Shown in pieces: positions 2,747 to 56,847 of a DNA stretch of 64,000 nucleotides. The stretch lies in IMG/VR virus record IMGVR_UViG_3300047163_000032, positions 32,877 through 96,876 of that record; one strand, 5' to 3'. The position numbers and the translations under genes were made by a program. Origin of the DNA: a virus. Taxonomy: Duplodnaviria > Heunggongvirae > Uroviricota > Caudoviricetes. A model generated the notes under the pieces. The model did not search any database. It was not told the DNA's origin and was given only the letters and a program-made list of their open reading frames with translations. How positions within the stretch are numbered: the first letter of the stretch is position 1; each line of letters begins with the position of its first letter.

Positions 2747-2761
2747 CCGAAAGGAAACACC

Positions 2762-26330: not shown

Positions 26331-27208
26331 TGGCGACAACCGGGACTGGTTACCTTACGGCGAACAGCGTCTTGACGGACATTAGCTTCACCTTGGTCGA
26401 GCCGGTGGTGAACGCTCAATTCAGCGCTCCGGTAACTGTCGGTCAGGTAGTTGCCGTTCCCACCAGCATGACAGGGATATACCAAGGGGCAATGCTCGTT
26501 GTTGGAGCCGGAGCATCCCTTGAGATTGTGACGGTCGCGTTTGTTTCAGGGCTGACGTTTGGGGCCACTTTCACGAAAGCCCACGCGACGAGCGAACCGA
26601 TTGTTGGAGCGACATTTCCGACTTGCCAGACGCAGGATGAATTTTTTACTCAATCCGAGGCGTTGACGTATCTTGCGGAGGCCCAGAACGATTACTTGTC
26701 GAGGGTCAAATGCGTATTCAACACGGTGACGCAGAGCTTCAAGGGAACCCAGACCATCCAACCGTATCCTCTGGACTGCATCCAGTTGCAGCGGGTTGCG
26801 GTCAACAACGTGGCTCTCAGGGAACAACCGCAAAGTTCTCTTGACTTGATTCAGCCAAATTGGGCGCAGTCCGGTTTTGGCAATCCAAAAATCTGGTATG
26901 AGGATCGGACAGGTTATTTGAACTATGGTGTGTGGCCTTCGCCCGGCAACGCCTTCAATGCGGAGGTGCTGTACGCTCAGAGAGACACGGTGCCGCTTGG
27001 GTTGAACGACGGTTTTCTGTTGCCCGATCCATTCGTCACCAGTTATATCAAGTACGGGTGTCTTGCGAAGATGTTCGCGAAAGACGGACAACAGGCCGAT
27101 CCCTCAAGAACAAAATTTTTCACGCAACGGTTTGAGTCGGGAATCGAAGTTGGGGCGAAGTTTTTAGCGATGACGCAAGGGCCGACGCAGGATATCGAAA
27201 ATGGATAG
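26330..27208 (+). CDS. hypothetical structural protein
   Basis: ORF track, start overlaps upstream stop. Confidence 0.45.
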   Translation: MATTGTGYLTANSVLTDISFTLVEPVVNAQFSAPVTVGQVVAVPTSMTGIYQGAMLVVGAGASLEIVTVAFVSGLTFGATFTKAHATSEPIVGATFPTCQTQDEFFTQSEALTYLAEAQNDYLSRVKCVFNTVTQSFKGTQTIQPYPLDCIQLQRVAVNNVALREQPQSSLDLIQPNWAQSGFGNPKIWYEDRTGYLNYGVWPSPGNAFNAEVLYAQRDTVPLGLNDGFLLPDPFVTSYIKYGCLAKMFAKDGQQADPSRTKFFTQRFESGIEVGAKFLAMTQGPTQDIENG

Positions 27209-30200: not shown

Positions 30201-30446
30201 TACACGGCCAGCCAGCCGATTGCCCTTTCGATCTATTACGATCAAGGGGAAGTCCCGGTTTTCAATATCACGCTTCCGGCTTCACGAAGGATTTCCACCC
30301 GTTTTCGGTTGCCAGCGGTGAAGTTTCGGCTTAGAAGAGTATTAGCGATAAGCGCGGCGGACTTCCAAGTCTGGCAGTCCGACATCCGGATCAAGCCGGT
30401 TTTGAGTACCAGCGGTTATCAGAAGAGACCGCTGTTGACCTCGTAG
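27201..30446 (+). CDS. large tail structural protein (1081 aa)
   Basis: ORF track; size, Thr/Ser/Gly-rich composition, position in tail module. Confidence 0.55.
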   Translation: MDSAYQLFSTKLESKGINARNVNDSLPAGFFLNLDNWTELSEDALSSRLGSIIVNRTGSTINALPAPVHSLAKLSGYQPSAWRYAGAGNVLYRRTGTSQGPYTSLATGMSGNPWSSAVYRPNLSSYPYIFIADSAKMLKDNGTTGAQQWGIFQPQTPVQAQAQAPMTNQLDAFTGTSYTTSNASIATAGPGSDGNINTVTTSAIVAGLNTVTVANPSQRIQMFQLLLVGSETVLVCGLTPTGFVANFVNVHAIGTSVTSKSLEITVNANATGTVTKTGALNLSVFSGGELVQEEDYIGIYFNAGVNPNSISQIAISFDVSDGSFTQNYFTKIIAPSVLEPSIAGTSSATDAITQSVYASTIGIYGAANGSVYPLNTAASWTNILLQMTDFEGVGQADFNDPVFNWSNVKAYQISITTNSNSSVSMFAASLVQFGGAGPDSFGGVSYDWLYTYYNAVTGWESNPCMFMSNVNPPTQTTYITPRRQPVTLTVVPSTDPQVTNIRIYRRGGSLEDNFRRVDQIAAASTTYTDTASDADIQGSAFISFTNDVPVTSTLPVPVVTTFTTAVTPTGTGQVLAVTPTSMTNISVNQQVTLGSDIDPNQEIVVVQSITGTTFTAFIQNAHKVGDPIEAESVYGQPVNGCVEAFNQIWLWGDPNNPHYVYYSGKSSPEGFSSAAFIEIGTPDNAVTAVVEYAGTLFVRTLEYWQAVAPGSQAGQSPTPYPTQTAHGGPGLNGLVKTEKGIWNQALDGLRVFDGSSANYATLDVEFLFQPQENGITPIEEADPTQFALTAMAYYNNVIYAAYTGLDGNRYRLNHHQIYNRFRNDSVPATVMLVEQDTNTLLWGDANGLIHQDQIGFYDEANLAGALITGSIPLNMQSAYMDQGAPRNLKQYQNLNLDINTGNQTLTVTLLFDDGQGNIVSVANDFSTPTRQKINIPINGEFGQTGYRASVQITGNVTQQVVIYQIAIEGLVLAEARRVWDTYFQTDDILDSKIAKDAFIEYTASQPIALSIYYDQGEVPVFNITLPASRRISTRFRLPAVKFRLRRVLAISAADFQVWQSDIRIKPVLSTSGYQKRPLLTS

Positions 30447-30496
30447 ATTAAGTAGGATAGGGGTGTCGAGCGTTCTAGCGGAAAGAGTGAGACCGA

Positions 30497-31423
30497 GTGG
30501 CCAAACAAAACATGCTGGCCCGGAGGACGTTCCCTGAACTCTCTCCGGAACTTAATCAATGGCTTTCGACCGTTACTGACAGTCTAAACAGTATCGCGGG
30601 CTACAACGGTCCAGCCTACGTCAACGATCATTTATCGATTGAGGGAAACCGACTGATGAATGTCGGAACCCCGGTTTCTTCGACCGACGCCATATCCAGC
30701 GGTCACGCCGAATCAAAATACTCTGCCAGCTCCCTTCAGCCGCAACTGGAGATTGGCGGTTCAGCCCCTCTCAACAGCTACCGCGTTCTTAATAGTCGAG
30801 CGCAGCAGGAGCAGTACAGCAGCCACTTGAACAGCCTTATGTCGGCGGTTGGCAACGCCAATACAATTGTGCCCACGGTTTCGACATCGGGCGGATCATC
30901 CACTATTACAATCCCAGCCAGCATTTTCCAATACTCGGACGGCAGCAAGAAGTATTTCCCCGGACGGAGCGACACGGTTTCCAACCCCGCCTCTTTCACC
31001 ATTTCCACTTGGTCGGTTACCGCAGGGGTGGCGACGGTCAACACGACCGCGACAAACACCGTGGCCTTGAACGGTTCGGTGACAATCACGGGATCGGGGG
31101 GAATCGATGGAACATGGCCGGTTGTGGGAGTGGCAAGCGGGACACAGTTTACTATCTCTGTGCCGTTTGGGAATAATACGGGATTAGGTGGAACGGTGGC
31201 TACGGGAAGCGTGTTCTACTACACCGCAATTAGAAATAACCCCATTCTCCAAATCAACTCGGTTCCATCCACGTCAGATACGCCTTACAATCGATTGCCG
31301 ATTTCCAACGACCAAAAGCAGTTGGTCTGCATCGTGACGTTGAACAGTTCAGGATCGGTTTCGGGCGGTTCTGCTGGCGGGGGAACGCCGACGAATGCCG
31401 CAAACGGTGGCTCTTTCTTCTAA
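30497..31423 (+). CDS. hypothetical tail fibre-like protein (Ser/Thr/Gly-rich)
   Basis: ORF track. Confidence 0.45.
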   Translation: MAKQNMLARRTFPELSPELNQWLSTVTDSLNSIAGYNGPAYVNDHLSIEGNRLMNVGTPVSSTDAISSGHAESKYSASSLQPQLEIGGSAPLNSYRVLNSRAQQEQYSSHLNSLMSAVGNANTIVPTVSTSGGSSTITIPASIFQYSDGSKKYFPGRSDTVSNPASFTISTWSVTAGVATVNTTATNTVALNGSVTITGSGGIDGTWPVVGVASGTQFTISVPFGNNTGLGGTVATGSVFYYTAIRNNPILQINSVPSTSDTPYNRLPISNDQKQLVCIVTLNSSGSVSGGSAGGGTPTNAANGGSFF

Positions 31424-31453
31424 TCAGTAGCGATACAATTTGCAAACGAGAGT

Positions 31454-31798
31454 TTGCTTGCTTGGATTAGAATGGCGTTTATGGGAGGAAGGACAATGGC
31501 AAAGATGTGGCGCGTGGTGTGGACTATTGAAGGGCTAGCTAGACGCAACCGCAAAGGAAAATTCTCAAAGACTTTTCCAAACGGCGGATGGATCGGTTTT
31601 TATACCCCATTTGGCGCTGTGGCTTTTTGTTTCAACTCGGAAAACGCAAAAATCCATTTAACGGAAACAGGGTTCACTTTGATGTGGGGCAAACACTCGC
31701 AGAAAGCAAGTGAGGATTACTATCCTCATTCCTCTGGAAGCCGTTTCACCATCGACCATCCAATGCTCTTTGCTCAATACGAGCAGGTTGTCTCGTAG
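31454..31798 (+). CDS. hypothetical protein
   Basis: ORF track. Confidence 0.35.
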   Translation: MLAWIRMAFMGGRTMAKMWRVVWTIEGLARRNRKGKFSKTFPNGGWIGFYTPFGAVAFCFNSENAKIHLTETGFTLMWGKHSQKASEDYYPHSSGSRFTIDHPMLFAQYEQVVS

Positions 31799-31809
31799 GT
31801 TTCTCGCTC

Positions 31810-32076
31810 ATGGACATCAAAGTGGTGGACACAAAAGATCACGGTTTGACAGGCTATTTGGAGATCACGATCCAAGCGGTCGAGACGACTGATACAGGAA
31901 CGCGGGAAGGGCCGCTGCGGACTTACGGCATCGCCTCCGAAATCATCCACTCCGGGTACGGCGGGAGCTTGGAGAACTGGTTGCAGGCGGTCAAAACCGA
32001 GCACCTGAAGCAGCACGGACTCCATACGTCGGTAGTCCAACAGTTGCACTCGATGAAAGGGAAGGTGATTGAGTAG
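31810..32076 (+). CDS. hypothetical protein
   Basis: ORF track. Confidence 0.3.
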   Translation: MDIKVVDTKDHGLTGYLEITIQAVETTDTGTREGPLRTYGIASEIIHSGYGGSLENWLQAVKTEHLKQHGLHTSVVQQLHSMKGKVIE

Positions 32077-32109
32077 TACAATCTGCGTACTGAGGATTGA
32101 GGAAATTCC

Positions 32110-32307
32110 ATGATGAACCCCAACGAGTACATCAAGCGGTTTGTGAGCGAAGAGGAAGTCCACCGACAGTTCGCCCTTATTCCAGCAACGCGGCGCTATA
32201 TTATGGAGGCCATTGATGTTGTTAACGTCTTGGATTACGAGACGGGCGTAGTGTATATCGACTGCAAATCGAAATTAAATCCCGTCTTAACGGACTTCAA
32301 TGTTTGA
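32110..32307 (+). CDS. hypothetical small protein
   Basis: ORF track. Confidence 0.3.
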   Translation: MMNPNEYIKRFVSEEEVHRQFALIPATRRYIMEAIDVVNVLDYETGVVYIDCKSKLNPVLTDFNV

Positions 32308-32974
32308 CAAGTGGCCCTACCAGACTGATAAAGTAGCTCTTCTTCCCTACGAGCGCAAAAACCTCGTCTTCCCGGACGATTTGCTCTACAAAGCCTACCT
32401 AAAGACCAAAGAGCAAAATCTGCTTGAGGTCGCCTTCCCTGGAATCCCCGACATCAACTTCGACAAGTTCATGGGTTGCATGTTGAGAAACGCGACTCAG
32501 GTGTACACCGTTAAGAATGGGGATGAACCGATTACGGCCGGTTTATGTTTCGTCTACAACGTGGATGGAGAGCCCGGAGCACGGATGGCCCACTTCGGTT
32601 TTTGGTTTTTCAGAGAGTGGCAGGCCAAGAGAGAGACGCGAGATTTGGTGTGGCTGTGTCTGGCGTACTGGTTTCTGGAGTTGAAGATCGACATCTTGTA
32701 CGGGGTGACTTTAGCCTCGAATCACCTTGCCAAGAACTTTTCCCGGAACTTTGGATTTATCAATCATGGGGTGATGCCTGAATTTCTTTGTCGCGGAGAT
32801 CATCGAGTTGATGCTAACGTTGTGTCATTGCGGAAATCGGACTTTGTACCACGGTTTGATGTCTGGCACAAAAAGAAATTGGCGGAGATGAACAATGGGC
32901 AGCACCAAGGGCGGAACGTCATCGACTCAAAAGAGCGAGAAGGGCATCGCTCAGGATTTGACGCAGAGTTTTAA
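32300..32974 (+). CDS. putative GNAT-family N-acetyltransferase
   Basis: C-terminal segment ILYGVTLASNHLAKNFSRNFGF resembles GNAT motif A/B (..N..A..F..K.GF). Confidence 0.45.
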   Translation: MFDKWPYQTDKVALLPYERKNLVFPDDLLYKAYLKTKEQNLLEVAFPGIPDINFDKFMGCMLRNATQVYTVKNGDEPITAGLCFVYNVDGEPGARMAHFGFWFFREWQAKRETRDLVWLCLAYWFLELKIDILYGVTLASNHLAKNFSRNFGFINHGVMPEFLCRGDHRVDANVVSLRKSDFVPRFDVWHKKKLAEMNNGQHQGRNVIDSKEREGHRSGFDAEF

Positions 32975-33470
32975 CACGCTCACGCAGGAAGGGCAGCAGG
33001 AGTTCAACCTCACTTTCCCCGGTTTGGAGACGGCGGAAAATTACGAATCGAAGTTGGCTTCGGGAGACCCCGGAGCGATTTCAAGGGCTGTCGCGCCAGC
33101 GGTTCAGCAAATCGACGCATCCTCGGAAGCCACTAAAAAGAGAATCGATCAGGACTCCGCAAGGGGTGGGGCAAAGAACCTTGCGTTGGCGGAGAACGAG
33201 ATCAACAAGGGCGCTCAAATCGGACAAGCGTCTTCAGGGGCGTACTTGAATTCATTCAACTCGCTTGCCGGGTTAGCGCAACAGGGTGAAGGCGCGGCAC
33301 AGGGGTTGTCGGGGGCTGCGATTGGGGCGGCTGAAGGGGCCGGTACTCAATATTCAAATGTTGCAAGCCAGCAAGCGGCGGCGAAGGCTTCTCAAATGGG
33401 CGCAGTTGGCGATCTGGTTGGAGCCGCAGGAACGGTCGGTGGAGCGGCAGCGGGGAACCCAAACAAGTAA
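32895..33470 (+). CDS. hypothetical Ala/Gly/Gln-rich protein (possible internal virion protein)
   Basis: ORF track; overlaps 3' end of previous ORF in another frame. Confidence 0.4.
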   Translation: MGSTKGGTSSTQKSEKGIAQDLTQSFNTLTQEGQQEFNLTFPGLETAENYESKLASGDPGAISRAVAPAVQQIDASSEATKKRIDQDSARGGAKNLALAENEINKGAQIGQASSGAYLNSFNSLAGLAQQGEGAAQGLSGAAIGAAEGAGTQYSNVASQQAAAKASQMGAVGDLVGAAGTVGGAAAGNPNK

Positions 33471-33491
33471 TCCGATAGTTGGACAAACATT

Positions 33492-35192
33492 ATGCCGATA
33501 GAGACTCCGCAGCTAAATTTCACGCCGTATAAGCCAGACCCGGCTAACGCGCCACAAGTGCCTCAAATCAACCCTCCGACTCAGCCGAACACAACAGAAG
33601 GGTTTATCCCTAAATCGGGAGCGGTTGCCCATGTGGTGACCGACGCGGTTCGAGGATGGATGCAGGGTAGAGAGATTGCCCAGCAAAACCAGCAAAAAAA
33701 GGCGCAGCAGCACATCCAGACCGCTGATTACGTCTACAACATCACCAAAGACAACTACAACGACCTATTGAGACAGGGCAAGGCAAAAGACTCACCCGAG
33801 GTACAGCAGGCATATCAAGCTGCGGTTGGCGCGTGGCAGGCCCGCAATCAGGTTTTGGGACAGTATGTGGCTCCCGATCAAGGCGAGAAGCCAAAGGGCG
33901 TTGGAGGAAAAGCGAAGGCTGCGGTCAAGGGCGTAGGGAAGGAGATGTTTGGTTCTCTGACTCCGCAGATGATTCCACAGGCGGCGATGGCTATTTTGAA
34001 GAACCAGCCTCCTCCCGGTTTGGGCATGACGGTTGACGACAATCTGAAGACCGAGGAACTGAAAGGAATCAAGACTCAGAACGAGTCGAGCGAGTTGAAA
34101 CTTCAACAAGAGAAGAAAGACGTTGAGGTCAAGAACGAGTGGACGACACTCTCGCAGATTCCGGTAGATAAGCAGAGCCCGGAGCAGAAGCAGAAATTGC
34201 GGATGCTCGACAGCATTATGACCGGGCCAGTGACTCCGGACAAACAACTGGAGTACGACACCGCCGCCGCGATTAGCGCGAACAAGCCGTTGACGGACGC
34301 GCAAAGACAGATTGCTTACGGCAAGGGATGGCTACAGGCTCCGCAGGTGCTTCAGACTCAGGACGGGTTGAACAACTACATTACGTCGATTGGGCCGGAC
34401 GGCAAGCAGTTGTGGAAGACGAAGGTGGGACGACAGTACCGCGAGGATCAGGCTGCGGCTGCGGGTCGGGTGATGCAGGCTCAGCAGGAAAATATGTTCC
34501 ACCTGTACCAAAAGGCCAACCCGGACATGTCGGACTCCGATCTGTGGAAGATGGTTTCGGGCGGTCTGGCAAAGAACAACGAATGGGTGAAGCACCTGCT
34601 TGGCGACGATCCAAAGAAAACAGAAGAGCAGAACGTTGCGCTCGACAAGGCCATGCACAAGGTTTGGGCCGATGCGCTGAAGGGGCCAAACGGCAAGGCG
34701 ATTACCGACTCTTGGACGAATTTAGTTAAACCCCCGCCAGACGGCAATATGGCAGGACAATTCGTGTTTGACGGGACGATAGCCCCCCCAACGGTGGAGA
34801 CGCATTGGTTTAGTCCAGATACGCAGAGTTACGCCGGAGGGTTGGATGCGGCAGGATTGAAGACAAACGCGGAAAGACTCAGGATATTGCTTGCCGGGGC
34901 GATGCGGGACGCCAACCCGAAGATGTCGGTGGACGAGATTCAGTCTGCGGTGGAAAGGGCCGTTCGTTTGCCGGAACCCAGTAATTCGGGGCCGCAATCA
35001 AGTGGGGATGGTGCGTCAAAACCAACTAACATGAGTCCCCCGCCCGGCATGAGGTCAACAGGCATAGGGTTTATGCCTAACGCAAACACGCCTCAACAGA
35101 TGAGTTCTTATCCCCAAGAGACGCGCACATACCAAGGGGCTACCTACGTCAAAGACGCATCGGGTCAATGGGTTCTTCAGGAAGACCGGTAA
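33492..35192 (+). CDS. hypothetical structural / internal virion protein (566 aa)
   Basis: ORF track. Confidence 0.45.
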   Translation: MPIETPQLNFTPYKPDPANAPQVPQINPPTQPNTTEGFIPKSGAVAHVVTDAVRGWMQGREIAQQNQQKKAQQHIQTADYVYNITKDNYNDLLRQGKAKDSPEVQQAYQAAVGAWQARNQVLGQYVAPDQGEKPKGVGGKAKAAVKGVGKEMFGSLTPQMIPQAAMAILKNQPPPGLGMTVDDNLKTEELKGIKTQNESSELKLQQEKKDVEVKNEWTTLSQIPVDKQSPEQKQKLRMLDSIMTGPVTPDKQLEYDTAAAISANKPLTDAQRQIAYGKGWLQAPQVLQTQDGLNNYITSIGPDGKQLWKTKVGRQYREDQAAAAGRVMQAQQENMFHLYQKANPDMSDSDLWKMVSGGLAKNNEWVKHLLGDDPKKTEEQNVALDKAMHKVWADALKGPNGKAITDSWTNLVKPPPDGNMAGQFVFDGTIAPPTVETHWFSPDTQSYAGGLDAAGLKTNAERLRILLAGAMRDANPKMSVDEIQSAVERAVRLPEPSNSGPQSSGDGASKPTNMSPPPGMRSTGIGFMPNANTPQQMSSYPQETRTYQGATYVKDASGQWVLQEDR

Positions 35193-35236: not shown

Positions 35237-38200
35237 GTGCCAGTCGATAACACAAATCCGCCGAAGACGCTACCCCCTGATTTTGATAATTGGGATAAAC
35301 CCTCTGGGAAACCACCGAAAACCCTTCCCGCCAATTTCTCGGGCTGGGACAAGCCTGCGCCTACGCGGTCTACAGGCATTGGGGAAATGCCTGCGCTACC
35401 TCAGCGTAAACTTGATCCGCTTGAGCGAGCGGGCCAGTACCTTTTTGGGAAGCCGCAGGAGATGCAGCCGCCGCCACAGAGCGCGTTCGATAAGAACAAA
35501 GCATGGGCGCAATCAGGCACGTACAAGACCGCGTTGGAGCCAGCGGAGGAACAGAGGTTTCAGGCGTGGGTTAAGCAGAACAACGTCCCGTGGCAGGACA
35601 CTCCAGACGCTGACTACGACATGCGCGGATATTGGAAGGCGCAGCAGTCCGGCGATAAGAACGCGAAACAGTCAAAGAACGCGAATGACGGGAAGATGCA
35701 CTTCCCTGACACGTACAAGACGCCGTACCACAAGTCGTTTTCGAACGAGAGCCAGTACGCGTTGCCCAACGCGCCGAAGTGGAACGATCAGGATCAGTTG
35801 GTCGATTCAACCGGAAAGGTTGTGTTCGACGAGCGGCACCCGATGCCAGAGGCTACGGGCAATCTTCAGTCATACGACGAGGGGGTTGTCGGGAAAACGC
35901 TGCGACGGATTGGAGAACTACCAACCGGAACAGGGGTAAACCTCAAGACCGCATGGGATCGGTTGTGGGGCGGCTCTGAAGGGGAAATTGACCGGAGACA
36001 GGCGCATCGCGAACGAATCAATGCGGAAAGTTCAGCCAATGCAGGATTATTGGAAGGCGTTCCACTTGAGATTCCGGGTATAGGGTATATCGACGCTGGA
36101 AAGACATTGAAGGCGGCAGCGGCCGTAACCGAGGGCGTTGGTGAAAACCTTTCAGACCAAATGATGAATCCCGGCAACCTTGCGCTGATGTTTGCAGGGC
36201 CAGCTAGAGGACTGGTTGCGGCAGAGAGCGAAGTTGCTCCGATTGCCGGAAAGGTCGAAAAGACTCTCGGGACTCTCGCTCATTACGGTTTTACCGCACA
36301 GATGACCTATGGAGCGGGACAGGCTGCGGTTGCGTCTGGACAAGCGTTTGCCAAAGGAGACTACGAATCCGGCTTGCGGCTTGCGGTTGACGGCTTAGTA
36401 TCCGGAACGATGGCGTTTGCTGGAGTCACCGATGCGATAGCCCAGAAGCGCGTCCACGATCAACTGAATACCGAAGCTCAGGCTCGCTACAAAGCACCAT
36501 TCGACAAGCTGGAGCCGCATGAGAAGGCGGATGTGGTCTATCAGGCGGCAATGAAGTCGCCGATGGGGATTGATCTTCAGAGGGCTCACCGTGAAGGTCT
36601 GCGCCCACCACCAAAGAGTGTGTCCGACGAATTGGCCCAAAGGGTTCAGGATGACTTGGAACAGCAGCGCCAGCGGTTAGGGGCACTTGCCAACCAAGAC
36701 GTTGATGAAGACACCCTAGAGGCCGACAGGCGCTACCGTGAGGGCATAGGGAAGGTCTCTGCTGATGGCAGAGAGGTTCCACCGGTCAAGCCGGAAGGCT
36801 ACGATGACCGGCAACGCGCTTTGCCAGCGTTCCCGACTATTTGGGAAGCGTCTGCGGATCGTAAAGCAAGAGAGCAGCGTGAATCGGAAGCTAAGGCTGA
36901 AAACGATAAGCGGATAGACGAACAGTACACCCAGCGTATCCGAGAACTGACCAGACCACGCGAACGGGTTGAACCGTACATCCTCGATGTCCCTGTACTC
37001 TCTGAAGCCGAACGCAAGATCATGCGGCAAGAAGAAGCAGAGCATCAGGCACGGTTGGCACTTGCGAGAGAGCAGGCTATTGAGGCCCAGCAAAAAGCCG
37101 ATGCGGAGAGACGGGCACAGGACGGGGAAAAGCCTCAGCCGTACTCGGTAATCGACCGCAGGGCTGTTCCTCTTGAGTCAATCCAGAACGAGGTAGCAAA
37201 GGCTCCCGACACCCCGGAAATTCTGGCGCACAAGAAGTACACGGATGACCTCGATTCAGCCGCAAGCAGTATCACCAATGGACGGTTTGGGGCGGAGACT
37301 CTTCACGAGCAGTTGACCAACCGGATTGCTTATGGCTACAAACCGACTCCGGAGGAACAGGACTTCCGTTCGATGTACGCAAGAAGAAGACACTTCGAGC
37401 GGTCTCCGGAGTTTGCCAAGTACGCAACGGAGGTAGTAGCGAAGATTGACCGGGATGCGGCACAGGACATTCTGAAGACCGCAGCAAGAGAGTCGGAACT
37501 TCGTGATGCGGAGAGAGCGTTTCGTGAGAAGGCATTGCAGGCTACCGATCCAGAAGAGATCGACCAGCACATGCAGGACGCGATGAAGGCTCGTGAGTAC
37601 GCGGAGAAAGCGCAGACCGAAAGAGAACACCGTCAGGCCGAACTAGCTGCGGCTCAGGAGCCCGAGCAGGTTATCCCCAATAGGGGAAATGTCAACGTGC
37701 TACTCGGAAGGAAGACCGAGATTATTTTGCCAGACGGTCGCAAAATTCCAGCTAGGTATGCTGGAGTGCGCGTAAGTCAAGTAATTCCTTCGCATGATCC
37801 GTTTAGCTTTGAATGGAACGAAAAGTTTGAGCCGCGAAAGATGCAGCCTCGCGACTACAAAACTAATTTGGAAGCGCAGGCATCATTGATGACGCGCTCT
37901 AAGCGGGAAAACTTCATTCTGTCCCTACTTGTTTCCGACGATCCTACTGGACAGCAAGGATTTCCCGTCATGCTTTCTGACGGTCGGCTGCCCGGAGGCA
38001 ACGGGCGTTTCATCGCTGAAGTAAGGGCGATGCAGGAAGACCCAACGCTTGCGAGACGCATCCATGCCGAGCTAGGAAAGTTCGACATCCCGACCGAAGA
38101 CACCTTTGACGATCAAGACCCTATTATCGGTGTCCGACTGTTGGACTACACCCCGGAGGACGTGAGCGATTTAATCAAGTTGGGAAGCGACCTAAACCGC

Positions 38201-41200
38201 GACTTCATGCTGGGCATGAGCCAGGACGAACAGGCGTCGATGAACGCCGAGCGGTTGACTCCGGAGAATGTAGAGAGAATCAGCGGTTGGCTGGAATCGA
38301 TGCCTGAAGGTTCGAGCCTGAAGGACATGTTCAAGAGGAGATCGAAGCAGGTTCTTGACCTGATGGTCGAGAGCGGCATTATTCCGGAGAACAAGCGTGT
38401 CGAGTGGATGAACTCTGACGGTACGGAGATGACCGAAAGAGCGACGACTACGTTCGAGAACATGATGTTGGGCAAGGCGGTTGGCGACCCTGCATTGCTG
38501 TCTCAGGCATCGGCTGACATCAGAAACAAACTGGCAAGATCGTTGACCGGATGGATCAAGATTCAGGGCGCTTCAGATGATTGGCAGATTCAGAGCAACT
38601 TGCAAGAGGCTTTGCGGATTTGGCACCAGATCGAAACGGTCAAGCCAGAGCTAAGCATGATCGGCAAAAGCTCCGACTCTATCGTGGACAAGTTCTTTCA
38701 CCCGGAAAAATACAAGATGGGAACCGGGTTTATGGACTTCGGAGACGACCAAGGAGTACGACCGCTACCTGATTCAACCACGCTGGCGATTGTGCAGATG
38801 TTGGATAGGATTCCGCTGCACGTCAAGCGGATGGTGGAAGATTACGCCGACGATGCTGAGGGCTTGCAGGCATCTCTGATGGAAAGACCGTCTCCGGTTG
38901 AGAGTTTTAACCGGGCCATAGGCGAGAAGGTTGGAGTAGAGGTTCACCCAGCTGAATGGAAGATGACCCGTCCCTTGGATGAGGGAACAAAGCGGTTGTG
39001 GGATCAGAACCAGCGTCCGGTCAAGGAAGCCCCTGAGAAGGCTCCAGAGGCCAAGAAGGAGCTTACTCCCCCGCCGACCAAAGAGAAGGGCTTAAAACCG
39101 CCTCCAGCAGCCAAGAAAGGGGAACTGGTTCCACCACCACAACCAATCTCTAAGGCTGTTCAGAAGAAGCTGGATCAGCTACCGGTCACAGGAGCCGTTA
39201 AGGGCGCTTCTCAGAGCTTGGCGCTGGGTAAGGTAGGCAACGACATAGGGAAGGTCACAGCGGCCATCCAGCAAGCGTGGCAGGGTATCCCAGAGCTTCA
39301 GGATGCCTACACTCAAGCGCGAGAGAATGCGATCAGGCAGCCTACCCCGGAGAACATTGCCAACGCGGAACAAGCGAAGGCGAACCTTTCGTGGAAGTTG
39401 GGTGATGTTCACGCTTTGGAGACACACAAGGCGTGGCTGGACAGTCTTCCGGCTGGGGCGCTTGACCCGGCTCCAGAGATTCTTCAAAGCGGCAAGACTC
39501 AGAGCGTTTCAAGCGAGGTGCTGGCGAATTACGCCAAGTTGAATAGCGGGGCGACGATCACCGGCAACGGCACGGTTAAGGCTGTTGAGGTGGACGGGCG
39601 GTTGTTCACGGTTGTCAGTGCTGGAAAAGACGGCTTGACGATGGTTCCGCTGTACACCCCGAAGGAGTGGGGAAACCGAATCAAAGGGAAAACCGTTTCT
39701 GCCGAGAATGGCTATCGCGGCTACAAGGTGAAGTTCAAGGGGAAGGACTACATCCTTGGCGGTCGTGAGTCGGAGTGGAAGTTGACTCGTGGTGAGTCCT
39801 CAGAAGAACAAGAGTTCAAAATCGGCACGGCTTTCAGAAAAGGCCAGCCTGTAAGCAGCGATCAACTCAGGACGTTCCTAGAGGATCATCCGAATACTTC
39901 GAAATATGCCGATGCGTTGATGCGGGTGTTGACCGAGGTAATGCCCCGCGCTACGGGGAAGACGTTGGATGAGTTCATTCGCGACCACGTGGACAATGTT
40001 GCTTTTTACAAAGAGCAGGATTTCCGCGACCAGTTCCCAGAGAGCCGGATGGCGAAGAGCGAGAATACTGTTCGCGGGATGATGGCCCCTGCGGTTGACC
40101 CTGCTAAGCGCGTAATCATGCTCTTTGAGAAGTCTCAGCCAGCCACGGTTTTGCATGAATTTTTTCATGTCATGCGTCCAAATTTGCTACCGGAATATCA
40201 GGCCGTTCTTGAAGACTTTGCTGGCGTTGAAAAGGTAAAAAATGCAAAAGGCGAACTGGTTCCAGATTGGACAATAGAAGCCGAAGAAAAAGTGGCACGG
40301 GCATGGGAGAAGTACCACTACGACGGCAAGGCTCCTACGTCGGCCCTGAAGGCGGTTTTCGACCACCTGAAGGAGCTATTCCACTCGGTCTACAAGATCG
40401 TCAAGAAGTCTGCGATTGATGTGAAGATTTCCCCGGCAGTCAGGGAAATGTTTGACCAGTGGTATGGCAAGGAGCCGCAAGAATTAAAGCCGCCACCGCC
40501 AAAACCTTATGACAGCAACGAATTAAATACACTAGCCGATTCATTGCGTAGCGCCTCGACCCAACCGCTCACTGTCCGAGTTGTCCGATGGGAAGTTCCA
40601 AGCAATGAAACAATTAGTGGCGGAACATGGGCGCTGATACACAACGATGCAGCCGATAGCAACAATCCGTACACCAAGTCTTTCGGTGAGTCCCGCGTTG
40701 AAAAAAAGACTACCGTAACTCTAAGGCGACCTCTTGCAGTAGAAATAGGAAACTTAGACGCAAACAACACGGAAAGTATAAGTAATTCCATCATCGAAAA
40801 ATTGGCCCCGTTCGCAAACGATGGCGTGACTAGCGTTCAAGACATGGAATCGCTGATTCAAGGAGACAACGATGAATTCGTTGAGGAGTCTTTAGGAATC
40901 CCAAAAGGAACAATTGAACGAGGCCGTAAAGCCCAAGATGCGTCTGGTGCTAACGACGCTATCGCAGTTGAATTGCTGAGAACGAACGGCTACGACGGAG
41001 CGGTGCAGATTCCGCAAGGAGGTGGCGTTAACGCGGAAGTTATCGTGCTTGATCGCTCCGCGTTTGACAACAAGCCAAAAACAAAGGGGATCAAGGCTCC
41101 ACCGCCGTCTTCACTGTCTACCGACATCACTCCACAGGAGAGAGAATCGGCTTCGATGGTTGCGGATGGTGGAGCGGATATCTCGACACGGTTGGGAGAG

Positions 41201-44200
41201 TCTCGCGCTAAAAGGTTCGACTCCAAAGCAGACGCGATCTCGTGGGCGGTTGAGAACAAGGATAACGTTCACGGACTGCAAATCTGGCAGACCCCGGACG
41301 GCAAAGCGTTTTCAATCTTTGTTCCCAAGTCTCCAGACACGCTCTTCCAGATGGAGCCGATGAACCGCGAGGATGCGGAGCGGAGAGTCGCCGAAATCCG
41401 TCGCAAGATGAATCTTCCAGAATTCGCATTGATGCGCGGTCGGATGAAGGACGACATCAAGCGGTTGGAGGACAAGTTCTACCTGAGTGGGCCAGCGCTT
41501 ATCAATGTCAAGCCGGGGGAACCAAAGCCCGGTATTCAACCGTTCACGACTATCCCTGAGTTTAGGGAGAAGCCAAAGCCAATCAACCTGTTCCCGGAGG
41601 AGGATAGCAATGCAAGGCAATCAAGCGGACTACTTGAAAGACCTGTTCGGGTTTCAGACGGTGGCCGAACTGGAGAAATGGATGAGCCAGCCGTCCGACC
41701 CGGAAGTGAACAAAAGGATGAAGCCGCCAGAGATGGAGATGGAGGACGAACTGGACAAGAGGATCGAAGAAGTCGAGAAGTTCGGCTATTAGACGTTCCC
41801 GATATCCAAGTCTCGCCCATCATTACCTTTCGAGACAGACCTGTTACCCAAGAGGAGCAAAAAAGTTGGGATGAGCGGAGCGAACGGTTCGGGCTTTCGG
41901 TTGGCTTGCCTGTGCCTGAAGTTTCCGTTGCTCCGCACATTGCGGCGCAACTGTCGATTGGCGGTCAAGTCGAAACGGTGAACACCCTTGCCACCGCCCT
42001 GAAACGAACAGATGGGGCAATTCTTGCTACGCCGACGGGCACTGGAAAGACTTACGTTTTGATGGCGCTACTGCGTCATTTGCACGACGAAGGCAAAGCG
42101 CGGAAGACTGTCACGATCACCAGCAGCAATGAAGTCATCAACCAAAAGCGCGGTTTTCTCGATGTGGCAAAGAATGTATTCGGCGTTCCGCTCAAGCAAC
42201 TTGATCCCAAGCTGAGAAACGTGCCAGACGGCCACTACGTGACGACGTGGGCCATGCTGCGGGAGAACCCTAATATCAAGTTGAACAATTGGGACTTGGT
42301 GATATTTGACGAAGCGCAAAACGCTCGCAATTGGACTGAGAGCCAACAGGGGTCGATAGCTAAGGATTTAGGCAAACTATCAAAGAAAATCGTTTGGTCG
42401 TCCGCAACTCCTTTTCATACCGGTTTGGAGCTGGGGTACATGGATGCGCTTGGGTTGTGGCGCGATAAGGGATTTCGCGAGTTTGCCAAGCAACTTGGAG
42501 TCGGTCAGAACAAGGAAGGGGGATGGTACGACAACAGCGATCCTAAGAAAATGCTGAAACTGAATCAGCAACTCGTGGAACGCGGTCAGATGGTTGGCAT
42601 CGACATGGACTACTCCGGCTACCATGCCAATTTCCTCCAGATTCCTTTAACCGCCGAGCATCAGCAGACGATCAGGAACGTCAATCAGGCGTTCGAGTTT
42701 GCCTATCGCTACTACAGCGTGAGGGAGGGAGGCGCGAACATAGTCAACAGCCTTAAAGCAGAGCAAGCAAACTTTGTTAAATCGCTAAACGACCGCATGA
42801 AACTTCCAGCGTTGATCGAGAGGATCAAAGAAGCGAACAAAGCTGGATATCGGACGGTAATTTTCTCCGACACCTACGCGGCAAAGACCGAAATGCCGAA
42901 TCGGTTGAAGGTGGTTGATGAGTTGATGGGCGGAAAACTGTCTGAGTTGTGGCCGAAAGAACTCCCCGGAGTGATGCAGGAATTGAAGAAGGGGCTTGGC
43001 GACAAGGTAGGGAACTTTAGCGGCGGAAACGAAGGAGGACTTGATGACCGAGGAAGGAGAGTTAGCTCCGACGCGCAATCGGTCAGAGACCTACGGGCAT
43101 GGCAAAACGGAGCATTAGACAACCTCTACAGCAGCTACGCCAAGGGCGGAACCGGCGTGAATATGAACGACACGGTTGGCGAAAAGCCTGTGATGGCTTT
43201 CTATCTGGGGTCTCCGTGGTCCGGAGTGGCGTTCCAGCAAGGCGTAGGGAGACCGTACCGCTACGGAACAAAGTCGGATGTTCAAGCCGTATTTTTGACC
43301 ACCAACGCCCGGTCTGAAGCGCGATTGATGTTGACCAAGGTTGCTCCGAGATTGGAAAAGCTGAAGGCCGGGGTTAACGGGGTTGAAAACGATCCAATGG
43401 TCGCGGCGATGCGAAAGTTGGATTCCGTAAGACACGATGTTGCGGCTTACGAAATAGGCCAAGAGCATAAATTCGAGGCCAATGACTTTGCTGTGACCGA
43501 AGAAATCCCTGTGATGAACCATAAGCAGTGGGTGATGCCTCATTCGCGGGAGATGATTGGCCCAGACAAGGGCATGAGGTATCCAGGCGGACAGGATTGG
43601 AAACCGGGCGTACTGCATCTGTTTCAGGCAGACGGCTCTCTGTATCAGGGAGGTTTTGATTCCATCGATTCGGACAAGGCAAAGCGGTTTACCGCCGACG
43701 TATCGAAAGACTTGGCCGAGGGAAACACTCTTCCGGGCGTAGGGGATCAGTTGTCGGATTTAGACCCCGGCGACAGGAGAGTGAAGGCGGATCAGATCGG
43801 CCCGGTTGTGACCGACATCGTGGAACGGATGGAGACGGACAACAAACAGGCTGCGGCTCGGATGGAGTACGAGAACGGGCTTCAGGAGTTGTTGGCGGCA
43901 AAGAAGGCCAACGAGATTCAGGCTACCCGCGAGGGATGGAAATGGACGCGCAACAAGGACGATGGTGGCGACAATAGCGACGGGGGAACCACAGGAGGAG
44001 CGCCGTCTTACAAACCAGCGCCGGACGACTCCGATCCCGACAACGTGAAAGTTCACCGGTTGCTTCTTTCCGGGCGGTTGAACCTTGAGAACATCGGTCG
44101 CCAATCCGGATCTTGGGAACAGGGCAAGCACCTCAAATGGATGAACGACCGCTACGAGACACGGAACGACAACTATCTGGGGACGCTCCAGACGATGATG

Positions 44201-46117
44201 TACGACGCGATCAAGGGGTTGAAGGACAAGGACGCAAGAGTTTTCTGGATGGTCAAAGAAGGCAAGATGGCGGCACCGGACGAGCGTATCGCCAAGGCTG
44301 TCGAAGCCTACACCAAGTACACGGATTATGTGCGCGAAGAAGGCGCTCGTCTTGGGGTAAAGACCTTCTTTGGAGCGAACGGGGAAATCTTGTGGAGCCA
44401 AATCGCCAACGACCCGAACTACATGCCGCACTACTTCGATTGGAACGAGAAGCACACGATGGTCAACCCGGACACCGGGGAAAAAGTAACCTTTACGTTG
44501 AACGACCTGCTTAAAGGGCAAACCCTTTCCGACATTGCTTATCAGAAAAACATCGAGACGTTAAGTAAAAACATCGGATGGGACAAGTCAAAGATCGAAG
44601 ATTGGCTGCAAAAGAAAAAGAAGTCCTACCGGGTCAAGGGCAATATCGAACGGGCGAGAGAAGCCGACCTTCCGCTCTATCGCATGGATTTCCATGCGCT
44701 TCACCAGTATGCTGCGGCTGCGGCTGAAGCGTTTGCCAGAACCGAAGTTTTCGGCCAGCAGCTTGAAAAACTGGATGCTCAAATCGCGCTGATTCCAAAC
44801 CCCAAGGGACGCGAGGTTATTAAGGGGTTGTTCGATGAACGGTTGAACCCGGAGCGGTGGGGGCCGAGGGACGGCAATTTCTACAAAGCGGTGACGACGG
44901 CGGAAATCGGTATGAAGATGGCGTTCTCGGCGGCCAAGCTGCCGGGTCACTTGGCGCATCAGGTTGTGGCCTCAGAGAACCTTGGGGCGCTCATTAAAGG
45001 CATTCTGAAGACTGCGGGCAGCCTAAAGGAAGCGGAACGCTCAGCAAGCCTGTCAGGGGCCATAGGAAGGCATTCCTACGCAATGGCTCAAGTCGAAGTT
45101 GCCAAAAGCATGAAGTTGAGCAACATTTTGCTAGGGAGCACCGGGTTCAACTGGGTGTACAAGCTGGATCGGATTATGAGTTCCGCCGCATCGCGAATCG
45201 ACATGGAGCAGCAATTGTTGCCGGAACTGAAAAGAGGAGGCAAGGACGAGGCCCACGCCAGAAGGATTCTTCACGACAACTACAAACTGTCGCATGAGGA
45301 AATCGATATGGCAAAGAATCTCGGCAGGTTCACCGATGAACAGATACGCATCGGACAGGCGGGGATGGCAAACACGGTTCTGTGGACTTCAAGCCCGATG
45401 GAATTGCCCCCGGACATGCGCGGCAAACCGGAGGGCATCCGCGAGGTTTTCCGTGTGATGACGGTGTTGAAGAGCTATATGTACAAGGAAATCATGTTCC
45501 AGAAGGAACAGATTTACGATCAGGCGCGTCAGGGAAACTGGGGACCGCTGAAATACGCGGCGCTCTTCTTCCCGATTGTTGGACAACTGATTCAGGCATC
45601 CACGGCGGCGTCGAAAGATGTGGCGTTTGTTCCGTACCGGGCCGCTAAAGGTACCCAGCAGGGAAGCAATACCAAGAAGTATTTGGACAAATGGGCGAAC
45701 CTGTACGCGGAAGTAACCGGGGACGATTCGATGGCGGAAAAGGCCGGGCATTTGATTAACTTCTACATTGATTCGTACACGGCGTTTTCAGCCCTTCGGT
45801 TGATCGGCGAGGTCTCGGACGTATTTTTGAACCCGAGCAAGAAAAAGAAGCAGCAGATGTATCGAATGAATGTGGCACTGCCTTCGGATTTTGCTGAAGA
45901 AATAGCTGGCATTGCATTCTCGGATATTGGCAGAACCTTGAAGACTTGGGTGATCGACGAGGCCGGACGCGGAACATGGCAGGACGGGGAAAAGCTGCAT
46001 AAAGCGAGGGTAAAGGCGGCCGAGAAATGGCTTGGCGACCTGATTCCTTGGATGCGTCCGGCGTTTGAGGCCCCGCCAAAGGATGCGGTCAATACAAGCG
46101 GTTGGGCAAAACGATAG
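35237..46117 (+). CDS. giant polyvalent protein (3626 aa) with SF2/SNF2-type helicase domain and HExxH zincin-like metallopeptidase motif; candidate injected anti-defence/ejection protein
   Basis: Helicase motif I ATPTGTGKTY (~nt 42037), motif II VIFDEAQN (~42304), SAT-like WSSATP, motif VI QQGVGRPYRYG (~43234); HExxH VLHEFFHVM (~nt 40153); N-terminal PPKTLP repeats. Confidence 0.7.
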   Translation: MPVDNTNPPKTLPPDFDNWDKPSGKPPKTLPANFSGWDKPAPTRSTGIGEMPALPQRKLDPLERAGQYLFGKPQEMQPPPQSAFDKNKAWAQSGTYKTALEPAEEQRFQAWVKQNNVPWQDTPDADYDMRGYWKAQQSGDKNAKQSKNANDGKMHFPDTYKTPYHKSFSNESQYALPNAPKWNDQDQLVDSTGKVVFDERHPMPEATGNLQSYDEGVVGKTLRRIGELPTGTGVNLKTAWDRLWGGSEGEIDRRQAHRERINAESSANAGLLEGVPLEIPGIGYIDAGKTLKAAAAVTEGVGENLSDQMMNPGNLALMFAGPARGLVAAESEVAPIAGKVEKTLGTLAHYGFTAQMTYGAGQAAVASGQAFAKGDYESGLRLAVDGLVSGTMAFAGVTDAIAQKRVHDQLNTEAQARYKAPFDKLEPHEKADVVYQAAMKSPMGIDLQRAHREGLRPPPKSVSDELAQRVQDDLEQQRQRLGALANQDVDEDTLEADRRYREGIGKVSADGREVPPVKPEGYDDRQRALPAFPTIWEASADRKAREQRESEAKAENDKRIDEQYTQRIRELTRPRERVEPYILDVPVLSEAERKIMRQEEAEHQARLALAREQAIEAQQKADAERRAQDGEKPQPYSVIDRRAVPLESIQNEVAKAPDTPEILAHKKYTDDLDSAASSITNGRFGAETLHEQLTNRIAYGYKPTPEEQDFRSMYARRRHFERSPEFAKYATEVVAKIDRDAAQDILKTAARESELRDAERAFREKALQATDPEEIDQHMQDAMKAREYAEKAQTEREHRQAELAAAQEPEQVIPNRGNVNVLLGRKTEIILPDGRKIPARYAGVRVSQVIPSHDPFSFEWNEKFEPRKMQPRDYKTNLEAQASLMTRSKRENFILSLLVSDDPTGQQGFPVMLSDGRLPGGNGRFIAEVRAMQEDPTLARRIHAELGKFDIPTEDTFDDQDPIIGVRLLDYTPEDVSDLIKLGSDLNRDFMLGMSQDEQASMNAERLTPENVERISGWLESMPEGSSLKDMFKRRSKQVLDLMVESGIIPENKRVEWMNSDGTEMTERATTTFENMMLGKAVGDPALLSQASADIRNKLARSLTGWIKIQGASDDWQIQSNLQEALRIWHQIETVKPELSMIGKSSDSIVDKFFHPEKYKMGTGFMDFGDDQGVRPLPDSTTLAIVQMLDRIPLHVKRMVEDYADDAEGLQASLMERPSPVESFNRAIGEKVGVEVHPAEWKMTRPLDEGTKRLWDQNQRPVKEAPEKAPEAKKELTPPPTKEKGLKPPPAAKKGELVPPPQPISKAVQKKLDQLPVTGAVKGASQSLALGKVGNDIGKVTAAIQQAWQGIPELQDAYTQARENAIRQPTPENIANAEQAKANLSWKLGDVHALETHKAWLDSLPAGALDPAPEILQSGKTQSVSSEVLANYAKLNSGATITGNGTVKAVEVDGRLFTVVSAGKDGLTMVPLYTPKEWGNRIKGKTVSAENGYRGYKVKFKGKDYILGGRESEWKLTRGESSEEQEFKIGTAFRKGQPVSSDQLRTFLEDHPNTSKYADALMRVLTEVMPRATGKTLDEFIRDHVDNVAFYKEQDFRDQFPESRMAKSENTVRGMMAPAVDPAKRVIMLFEKSQPATVLHEFFHVMRPNLLPEYQAVLEDFAGVEKVKNAKGELVPDWTIEAEEKVARAWEKYHYDGKAPTSALKAVFDHLKELFHSVYKIVKKSAIDVKISPAVREMFDQWYGKEPQELKPPPPKPYDSNELNTLADSLRSASTQPLTVRVVRWEVPSNETISGGTWALIHNDAADSNNPYTKSFGESRVEKKTTVTLRRPLAVEIGNLDANNTESISNSIIEKLAPFANDGVTSVQDMESLIQGDNDEFVEESLGIPKGTIERGRKAQDASGANDAIAVELLRTNGYDGAVQIPQGGGVNAEVIVLDRSAFDNKPKTKGIKAPPPSSLSTDITPQERESASMVADGGADISTRLGESRAKRFDSKADAISWAVENKDNVHGLQIWQTPDGKAFSIFVPKSPDTLFQMEPMNREDAERRVAEIRRKMNLPEFALMRGRMKDDIKRLEDKFYLSGPALINVKPGEPKPGIQPFTTIPEFREKPKPINLFPEEDSNARQSSGLLERPVRVSDGGRTGEMDEPAVRPGSEQKDEAARDGDGGRTGQEDRRSREVRLLDVPDIQVSPIITFRDRPVTQEEQKSWDERSERFGLSVGLPVPEVSVAPHIAAQLSIGGQVETVNTLATALKRTDGAILATPTGTGKTYVLMALLRHLHDEGKARKTVTITSSNEVINQKRGFLDVAKNVFGVPLKQLDPKLRNVPDGHYVTTWAMLRENPNIKLNNWDLVIFDEAQNARNWTESQQGSIAKDLGKLSKKIVWSSATPFHTGLELGYMDALGLWRDKGFREFAKQLGVGQNKEGGWYDNSDPKKMLKLNQQLVERGQMVGIDMDYSGYHANFLQIPLTAEHQQTIRNVNQAFEFAYRYYSVREGGANIVNSLKAEQANFVKSLNDRMKLPALIERIKEANKAGYRTVIFSDTYAAKTEMPNRLKVVDELMGGKLSELWPKELPGVMQELKKGLGDKVGNFSGGNEGGLDDRGRRVSSDAQSVRDLRAWQNGALDNLYSSYAKGGTGVNMNDTVGEKPVMAFYLGSPWSGVAFQQGVGRPYRYGTKSDVQAVFLTTNARSEARLMLTKVAPRLEKLKAGVNGVENDPMVAAMRKLDSVRHDVAAYEIGQEHKFEANDFAVTEEIPVMNHKQWVMPHSREMIGPDKGMRYPGGQDWKPGVLHLFQADGSLYQGGFDSIDSDKAKRFTADVSKDLAEGNTLPGVGDQLSDLDPGDRRVKADQIGPVVTDIVERMETDNKQAAARMEYENGLQELLAAKKANEIQATREGWKWTRNKDDGGDNSDGGTTGGAPSYKPAPDDSDPDNVKVHRLLLSGRLNLENIGRQSGSWEQGKHLKWMNDRYETRNDNYLGTLQTMMYDAIKGLKDKDARVFWMVKEGKMAAPDERIAKAVEAYTKYTDYVREEGARLGVKTFFGANGEILWSQIANDPNYMPHYFDWNEKHTMVNPDTGEKVTFTLNDLLKGQTLSDIAYQKNIETLSKNIGWDKSKIEDWLQKKKKSYRVKGNIERAREADLPLYRMDFHALHQYAAAAAEAFARTEVFGQQLEKLDAQIALIPNPKGREVIKGLFDERLNPERWGPRDGNFYKAVTTAEIGMKMAFSAAKLPGHLAHQVVASENLGALIKGILKTAGSLKEAERSASLSGAIGRHSYAMAQVEVAKSMKLSNILLGSTGFNWVYKLDRIMSSAASRIDMEQQLLPELKRGGKDEAHARRILHDNYKLSHEEIDMAKNLGRFTDEQIRIGQAGMANTVLWTSSPMELPPDMRGKPEGIREVFRVMTVLKSYMYKEIMFQKEQIYDQARQGNWGPLKYAALFFPIVGQLIQASTAASKDVAFVPYRAAKGTQQGSNTKKYLDKWANLYAEVTGDDSMAEKAGHLINFYIDSYTAFSALRLIGEVSDVFLNPSKKKKQQMYRMNVALPSDFAEEIAGIAFSDIGRTLKTWVIDEAGRGTWQDGEKLHKARVKAAEKWLGDLIPWMRPAFEAPPKDAVNTSGWAKR

Positions 46118-56760: not shown

Positions 56761-56835
56761 AGGGGCGTAAGCTAACTGGAAAACTGCTGGTCTCCAAAAC
56801 CAGACTTGCTTGTTCAAATCAAGTCGCCCCTGCCA
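56761..56835 (+). tRNA. tRNA-Trp (CCA)
   Basis: Acceptor aggggcg/cgcccct, anticodon arm ctggt-ctccaaa-accag, T arm gcttg-ttcaaat-caagt, G73 CCA. Confidence 0.65.
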
Positions 56836-56847
56836 TATAATTTAAGC

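Follow-up and report, generated by a model that had tools for sequence, protein, structure and literature searches.

A stretch of viral DNA of 64,000 nucleotides (nt) from IMG/VR record IMGVR_UViG_3300047163_000032, referred to here as the window, contains a single giant open reading frame (ORF) whose product is quite probably a phage-type polyvalent protein built on the chassis of an internal virion, or ejection, protein. The protein belongs to a new, uncultured branch of a known class and is not a new kind of system. The hub domains of that class include metallopeptidase (MPTase), DdrB-ParB and SWI2/SNF2 domains, and DdrB-ParB is restricted to phage-type proteins encoded beside virion genes (Iyer, Burroughs, Anand, de Souza and Aravind 2017; PMC5512222). 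In the giant protein, a DdrB-type ParB domain, a zincin and an SNF2 ATPase, unrelated effector domains, were found in one polypeptide, and its gene lies on the same strand downstream of the genes for terminase, portal, capsid protein and adaptor. The identities of these domains, their conservation, the existence of a collinear family and the position of the gene were shown by the analysis. The original prediction of a polyvalent protein of phages and conjugative elements is therefore upheld for the phage part; the window is phage genome with a portal and an adaptor of podovirus type, and no conjugative-element context was seen.

As had been predicted, the ORF is a single frame of 3,626 codons. 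Translation from its GTG start meets no stop, and the same 3626-residue product was called by a gene caller on an independent Logan contig (ERR9963795_118211, run ERR9963795). The true N-terminus is uncertain by 50 residues because the GTG at 35237 is not preceded by an obvious Shine-Dalgarno sequence, and P0002, the representative of a 98%-identical cluster, begins at residue 51, which is the ATG at 35387. A start at that ATG would take away both PPKTLP repeats. The N-terminus had been described as repetitive and proline-rich; proline indeed accounts for 18% of the first 100 amino acids (aa), and the repetition consists of two copies of a 15-aa unit, while no array was detected at the DNA level by Tandem Repeats Finder. 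Helicase motifs I, II, III and VI and the HEFFH motif were all found where they had been reported.

The helicase motifs belong to an ATPase with both lobes present. Pfam assigned it to ResIII (37.3 bits, cut-off 22.5) and DEAD (37.0 bits, cut-off 26) and, on a 480-aa segment, to AAA_34, the N-lobe of Strawberry-notch (29.0 bits, cut-off 27); Helicase_C_4 matched weakly (E 0.048), and SNF2-rel_dom, at 22.0 bits, fell under its gathering score of 24.9. When a profile of 11 family members was compared with the PDB, SNF2 enzymes came first over both lobes, with ISW1 at 6e-16 and the SsoRad54-like 1z63 at 1.3e-15, and further matches were SRCAP, Rad26, SWR1, INO80 and RapA. The motifs are kept in the IMG/VR relative described below and are invariant in alignment A7. 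With the Pfam thresholds passed and the SWI2/SNF2 clade recovered by the PDB profile, the assignment as an SF2/SNF2 helicase holds. Matches to defence systems (PADLOC, DISARM DrmD) covered only 48-57 residues of the N-lobe at motifs I and II with 17-18 bits, and membership in such a system was rejected.

The closer comparison drawn in the original prediction, with the DarB-like class, does not hold. P1 DarB combines an adenine methylase with an SF2 helicase in anti-restriction; the giant protein resembles it in the SNF2-clade ATPase and in presumed delivery with the DNA, but it has neither an N6-adenine methyltransferase (no NPPY/DPPY motif) nor LPD36. No [NDS]PP[YFW] or S-adenosylmethionine-binding motif was found in the giant protein, nor any methyltransferase family there or in 14 relatives. 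Because the defining methylase was not found, DarB membership was rejected.

The HEFFH motif lies in a domain of its own. All but one of 56 homologous domains have HExxH, and in an alignment of 28 sequences H1640, E1641, H1644 and E1684 are invariant and E1691 and Y1693 nearly invariant, with E1684 as the presumed third metal ligand. An AlphaFold2 model built from this alignment has a mean predicted local distance difference test (pLDDT) score of 87.1 and contains the zincin fold; its best structural matches are PPEP-1, PPEP-2, PPEP-3 and anthrax lethal factor (MEROPS M34). Since HExxH is conserved, the ligands are invariant and the zincin is confidently modelled, the HEFFH noted earlier as zincin-like is a real active-site motif, the active-site helix of a conserved zincin-fold domain and not a chance occurrence. 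The domain is predicted to be a zincin (gluzincin) metallopeptidase. A distant homologue of this segment occurs within a 1974-aa protein of BK063671, whose gene follows the tail-tube genes and that of an annotated internal virion protein.

Ahead of the zincin lies the DdrB-type ParB domain. The Pfam model ddrB-ParB (PF18763) found the domain in 13 of 14 relatives at E<=0.001, the best match reaching 3.6e-19, and P0026 scores above the family cut-off with 32.8 bits. Residues 820-1130 are common to about 140 of the 150 best library matches. Furthermore, GGNGR at aa 920-924 supplies the active-site arginine conserved in the ParB/Srx superfamily and fits the family consensus GGNxR/GGNGR.

The same architecture recurs outside the deposited phages. 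Relatives of the capsid protein, 59-74% identical, were found in 13 IMG/VR contigs, and by walking from the capsid gene of one of them, IMGVR_UViG_3300038429_000587, a syntenic frame of about 3,120 codons stop to stop was reached, which matches the giant protein at 28% over aa 196-1274, 34% over aa 1539-1754 and 35% over aa 1938-3625. An exhaustive HMMER library search with aa 740-1939 returned 2,438 proteins at E<=0.001; among the best matches, about 30 giants of 2,400-5,800 aa from metagenomes are collinear with the giant protein, with the ParB block, zincin, ATPase and C-terminal module in this order and variable insertions between them. The cargo varies: a 2H (2',5' RNA ligase-like) phosphoesterase domain is present in 3 of 14 relatives (range P0003-P0093), an SLT transglycosylase stands at the N-terminus of 2 of the 14, as in T7 gp16, P0093 has two ATPase modules, and the longest relative reaches 5,803 aa. 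No match came from locus searches that used the giant protein, the 566-aa protein upstream of it or the Band_7 protein, nor from 185,579 genomes searched with the capsid protein for a host or prophage. A word-indexed protein search gave one match for aa 1501-2750 and none for the C-terminal alignment; these empty results say little, because the query's own cluster and the IMG/VR relative were not returned. PDB sequence searches with the whole protein, the N-terminal domain and the zincin and C-terminal profiles yielded nothing useful, the N-terminal domain and the zincin family profile having no match.

These relatives also bear on a structural alternative. A tape-measure or tail-fibre-like protein without enzymes, or an assembly artefact fusing several genes, would suit the great length of the frame and its place in the structural block. 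That explanation is hardly credible and is refuted by the three enzymatic domains supported by profiles, conservation or fold, by the same ORF on an independent contig, and by a 98%-identical variant together with the collinear homologues. The portal and adaptor of podovirus type also speak against it, and podoviruses are not known to have a tape-measure protein.

Evidence for the ejection chassis comes from the C-terminal module and from the position of the gene. The module is invariably C-terminal in the 19 relatives that have it. Foldseek comparison of its model with predicted viral structures gave 33 matches at E<=0.001 (4e-8 to 1e-3), among them Internal virion protein C of Aeromonas phage PS, Internal protein D of Bordetella phage BB8, Protein inside capsid D of Marinomonas phage CB5A and the core proteins of PAO1_Ab05 and LKA1. 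The other named matches, with BFVD suffixes _2 to _4, are later parts of polyvalent-annotated proteins that carry LPD, ART-PolyVal, RelA/SpoT, methylase or chromatin-remodelling ATPase annotations. The modelled module thus appears to resemble podovirus internal virion or ejection proteins. In addition, the ORF closes the structural block as its last large gene, which agrees with the place predicted at the distal end, and the gene order corresponds to T7-like gp11, gp12 and internal proteins gp13-16, the giant ORF standing where T7 has gp14-16. This placement downstream of the adaptor and the nozzle position is that of T7 gp16, and the same arrangement was found in BK063671. Likeness to T7 gp16/gp15 and their phiKMV-like relatives is seen in the gene position and, tentatively, in the all-helical, Foldseek-matched module; the N-terminal SLT lysin of T7 gp16 is shared by some family members only. 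The proposal that the protein is packaged and injected gains support from the position of the gene and from the match between the C-terminal model and podovirus internal virion proteins.

On this basis a mechanism can be proposed. The C-terminal module would be the counterpart of podovirus core or ejection proteins of the T7 gp15/gp16 kind and would carry the protein into the capsid and later, at infection, out by way of the tail. Fused ahead of it would be enzymes for early infection, namely the DdrB-type ParB domain, the zincin, the SNF2 translocase of double-stranded DNA (dsDNA) and at least four further segments. The ParB domain may be a nucleoside triphosphate-dependent nuclease or a nucleotide sensor, the protease would most likely cut the polyprotein itself at inter-domain linkers and free the domains, and the SNF2 motor would most likely act either on the incoming genome or on complexes of host DNA and protein.

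Several results weigh against the proposal of a polyvalent protein on an ejection chassis. Pfam found no family, hence no peptidase model, on aa 1481-1960 even at E 10, and ddrB-ParB scored 24.6 bits on the giant protein (E 3e-5), under its cut-off of 27.6. The all-helical C-terminal model is moderately confident (pLDDT 66.5) with TM-scores of 0.3-0.46, the C-terminal family profile matched no PDB sequence, and no SLT or lysin domain was found by Pfam at the N-terminus of the giant protein. Finally, packaging and ejection, like self-cleavage and an anti-defence role, are inferred functions. If the protein did not enter the virion, it might instead be an early or replication helicase-nuclease polyprotein that merely adjoins the structural genes. 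An ATPase and a ParB-like nuclease are domains of DNA metabolism, and downstream, where there are also small genes, the Band_7 protein and the three HNH endonucleases are non-structural. Such a role is nevertheless quite improbable: replicative helicases are of other types than SNF2, the matches of the C-terminal module include internal virion proteins, some relatives carry an N-terminal SLT lysin, strand and gene block are common with the tail genes, only 44 nt separate the ORF from the upstream 566-aa gene, and DdrB-ParB domains typically occur beside virion genes (PMC5512222).

Within the preferred reading, that of an ejected polyvalent protein, a processing rule was suggested by a recurrent proline motif. 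The pattern [LMIF]-x-P-P-P occurs six times in the giant protein (MQPPP 78, LRPPP 457, LTPPP 1278, LKPPP 1288, LVPPP 1299 and LKPPPP 1752), with a near-match, IKAPPP, at 1955. All sites but the first coincide with the ends of homology blocks, and corresponding ones are present in the IMG/VR relative. Of the 136 PPP sites in 34 relatives, 73 have L, M, I or F at position -2, and the residue at position -1 is usually A, T, E or V. By shuffling, 6.9 occurrences of the motif would be expected in 53 zincin-bearing proteins and 81 were counted; for 73 ParB homologues lacking the zincin the expectation is 8.3 and the count 12. The site preferred by PPEP-3, which is among the best structural matches of the zincin, is (L/F)(H/R/K/S)P↓P, with the cut at the arrow and Pro at P2' and P3' (PMC12828418); written as (L/F)-x-P↓P-P-P, it is like the linker motif. 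Because the motif stands at block ends, is enriched and resembles the PPEP-3 site, the zincin may be a self-processing endopeptidase of the Pro-Pro type.

Thus the embedded zincin, like Pro-Pro endopeptidases with their (L/F)-x-P↓P sites, could cleave its polyprotein at linkers of the form [LMIF]-x-P↓P-P, a possibility with appreciable but less than even chances; it refines the proposal of an ejected polyvalent protein and does not compete with it. The products would be roughly aa 1-78, 79-457, 458-1278, 1300-1752, 1753-1955 and 1956-3626. It remains doubtful that the enzyme dismantles its own polyprotein by a repeated code, [LMIF]-x-P↓P-P at up to about ten sites per protein, bracketing interchangeable cargo domains. 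In the M34 family the conserved Tyr precedes the conserved Glu, and here the order is reversed (E1684...Y1693). The motif is found in only 5-7 of 17 zincin sequence clusters, and a five-member clade of full architecture has none; the sequences are related, so that the enrichment counts are not independent events, and proline-rich linkers are common for purely physical reasons. Cutting of a polyprotein into working units by the MPTase was proposed earlier for the class, with no mention of prolines, linkers or a processing site (PMC5512222). The segment at aa 1756-1954, between two proline sites, is a candidate for released cargo. Elsewhere among the called genes of the window, [LMIF]-x-PPP was seen only at the very end of the portal (LAPPPKGK, aa 603), within its final nine residues, and near the C-terminus of the 566-aa protein (MSPPPG, aa 514), the latter loosely kept as MATPPS in L016. 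The portal site was considered as a substrate in trans and dropped, since it is not conserved in relatives.

If the proline rule holds, the largest product is aa 1956-3626 (1,670 aa), in which the SNF2 motor is still joined to the ejection module. A motor that stays on this module could act as an engine drawing the phage genome into the cell, a role played by transcription in T7 and by the virion RNA polymerase in N4. Consistent with such an engine, the SNF2 and C-terminal modules are adjacent and in the same order in 19 of 19 relatives having both, no proline site separates them in the giant protein, no RNA polymerase family was matched in the 64-kb window, which covers the genome only partly, and SNF2 enzymes are dsDNA translocases (PMC5512222). 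The idea is speculative, however, and unlikely: P0005, P0006 and P0008 have an M-E-PPP site between the two modules, and a role in anti-restriction or on host DNA fits the same data.

Comparison with known systems places the protein within the polyvalent class. As in that class (PMC5512222), unrelated effectors are joined in one giant, with zincin MPTase, DdrB-ParB and SWI2/SNF2 together, the gene is a late one by the virion genes, and several domains are unassigned, like the LPD domains. It differs in that the zincin has no Pfam match, the SNF2 ATPase lacks the methylase partner usual in the class, and the lineage is unmatched among 50,697 deposited phage records: megablast of the ORF found nothing, and tblastn matched two short segments only and nothing for the C-terminus. 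The ParB-plus-zincin portion is nearer to P1 DdrB than to DarB. P1 DdrB, with a ParB domain and a C-terminal MPTase, is processed and packaged in the head, and here, too, ParB is followed by a zincin in one polypeptide; P1, however, is a myovirus and its DdrB has about 1,000 aa, whereas here the pair lies within 3,626 aa together with SNF2 and an ejection-like C-terminus. Giant multi-domain proteins with a metallopeptidase are also known from podoviruses, namely phi24B gp47 and the N4 virion RNA polymerase gp50, which are packaged and proposed to be ejected (PMC5512222; bioRxiv 10.64898/2026.04.10.717836); the former, a polyvalent protein of 2811 aa, was found by proteomics in virions of its short-tailed Stx phage (bioRxiv 10.64898/2026.04.10.717836). 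Their cargo is different, LPD5/LPD1/LPD38 with MuF-C in gp47 and RNA polymerase in N4, and neither gave a sequence match to the giant protein in the phage collection.

Several regions had been called unassigned, and this was confirmed for aa 75-200, 200-456, 1301-1530, 1756-1954 and 1957-2230. The domain at aa 75-200 has 783 homologues and no Pfam family, and looks like an uncharacterised, widespread phage domain, with the consensus W..LxPxxExxFxxW..DYDxRxxW..DGKxHxxDxxKTP..FSxES.YA. Most homologues are stand-alone proteins of 110-300 aa on phage-sized contigs; the domain can also close structural proteins at their C-terminus. Tunturiibacter phage Tunturi_3 has it as the C-terminus of gp25 (1,070 aa), whose gene sits between those annotated for a lytic tail fibre protein and an endolysin. 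In relative L017 (IMGVR_UViG_3300036893_000044, 17229-19310) it is fused to a homologue of the upstream 566-aa gene, which shows that domains are shuffled between neighbouring internal-protein genes. The charged region at aa 460-800 probably forms long helices.

The features of the ORF and of its neighbourhood are collected in the table. The upstream context, 26330..35192, is syntenic with IMG/VR relatives. The 224-aa gene within it encodes a possible acetyltransferase, and the tail genes of Tunturi_3 likewise include an acetyltransferase. A Band_7/SPFH gene, as found downstream, is unusual in a phage early region. The three separate HNH endonuclease genes occur downstream of the giant ORF within 6 kb. 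The second giant ORF, of 2,873 aa, is missing in the closest IMG/VR relatives (L002, L003), where its flanking genes adjoin; it may encode a variable fibre, spike or other cargo protein.

Table. Features of the giant ORF and neighbouring genes, with positions counted from the first nucleotide of the window.
Feature	Position (nt)	Strand	Residues (aa)	Remarks
Whole ORF	35237..46117	+	3626 aa	Alternative start ATG 35387 gives 3576 aa
Proline-rich unit PPKTLPxxFxxWDKP, two copies	35258..35356	+	8-22, 26-40	PPKTLPPDFDNWDKP and PPKTLPANFSGWDKP
N-terminal conserved domain	35459..35836	+	~75-200	Alignment A2
Gly/Ala-rich, mildly hydrophobic region	35834..36604	+	200-456	Composition, hydropathy; common to close relatives
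Highly charged region	36614..37636	+	460-800	30-44% charged residues
DdrB-type ParB domain with co-conserved ~340-aa extension	37454..39091	+		Core aa 833-946, nt 37733-38074
Three [L]-x-P-P-P sites	39062..39139	+	1276-1301	ELTPPP, GLKPPP, ELVPPP; end of ParB block
Further proline site	35462-35476	+		MQPPP
Further proline site	36599-36613	+		LRPPP
Further proline site	40484-40501	+		LKPPPP
Further proline site	41093-41107	+		IKAPPP
Strand-forming segment	39137..39826	+	1301-1530	Coverage 1-2/150; weak phrog_15679 match, E 0.004
Helical lead-in module and predicted zincin metallopeptidase core	39851..40489	+	1539-1590 (lead-in), ~1595-1751 (core)
HEFFH	40154-40168	+	1640-1644
Conserved AEEKxARAxExY helix	40280-40327	+		In zincin region
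Segment of ~200 aa between two proline sites	40502..41098	+	1756-1954	Common only to near-identical P0002; no family match
Family-conserved region ahead of ATPase	41105..41926	+	1957-2230	Homology blocks begin at aa ~1940-1960 in relatives
SWI2/SNF2-type (Strawberry-notch-like) SF2 ATPase, both lobes	41954..43516	+	~2240-2760
Helicase motif I	42026-42055	+	2264-2273	ATPTGTGKTY
Helicase motif II	42305-42334	+	2357-2366	FDEAQNARNW
Helicase motif III	42398-42415	+	2388-2393	SSATPF
Helicase motif VI	43235-43276	+	2667-2680	QQGVGRPYRYGTKS, contains QQGVGRPYRYG
All-helical C-terminal module	43574..46114	+	2780-3626
Large terminase	4704-6839	+		Upstream of giant ORF
P22/SU10-type portal	7494-9329	+		Upstream of giant ORF
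Major capsid protein	11530-12495	+		Upstream of giant ORF
Second giant ORF	15770-24391	+	2,873 aa	Structural block; no Pfam, PHROG or NCBIfam match
SU10-type adaptor	26330-27208	+		Upstream of giant ORF
Gene in place of T7 nozzle gene	27201-30446	+	1081 aa	Inferred from position; no family match
Gene with GNAT (acyl-CoA N-acyltransferase) PHROG match	32300-32974	+	224 aa	E 6e-5
Gene just before giant ORF	33492-35192	+	566 aa
Band_7/SPFH-family protein	48230-49132	+		2 kb downstream of giant ORF
HNH endonuclease	51179-51751	+		Downstream of giant ORF
HNH endonuclease	53828-54595	+		Downstream of giant ORF
HNH endonuclease	56806-57396	+		Downstream of giant ORF

Of all phage proteins, the polyvalent ones are believed to encounter the host first, and almost none has been studied biochemically. 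The present family offers a concrete and cheap test, since a well-modelled protease domain of 180 residues comes together with a short candidate substrate motif at domain boundaries. The proline code, if true, would be the first defined processing rule for phage polyvalent proteins, and it would extend Pro-Pro endopeptidase chemistry from secreted Firmicute enzymes to phage proteins delivered by the virion. If the SNF2 motor stays on the chassis, it could bear on DNA entry in podoviruses without a virion RNA polymerase. In conclusion, the family follows a chassis-plus-cargo logic, in which the ejection-like C-terminus is constant and the N-terminal cargo, such as an SLT lysin, a 2H phosphoesterase and others, is variable.

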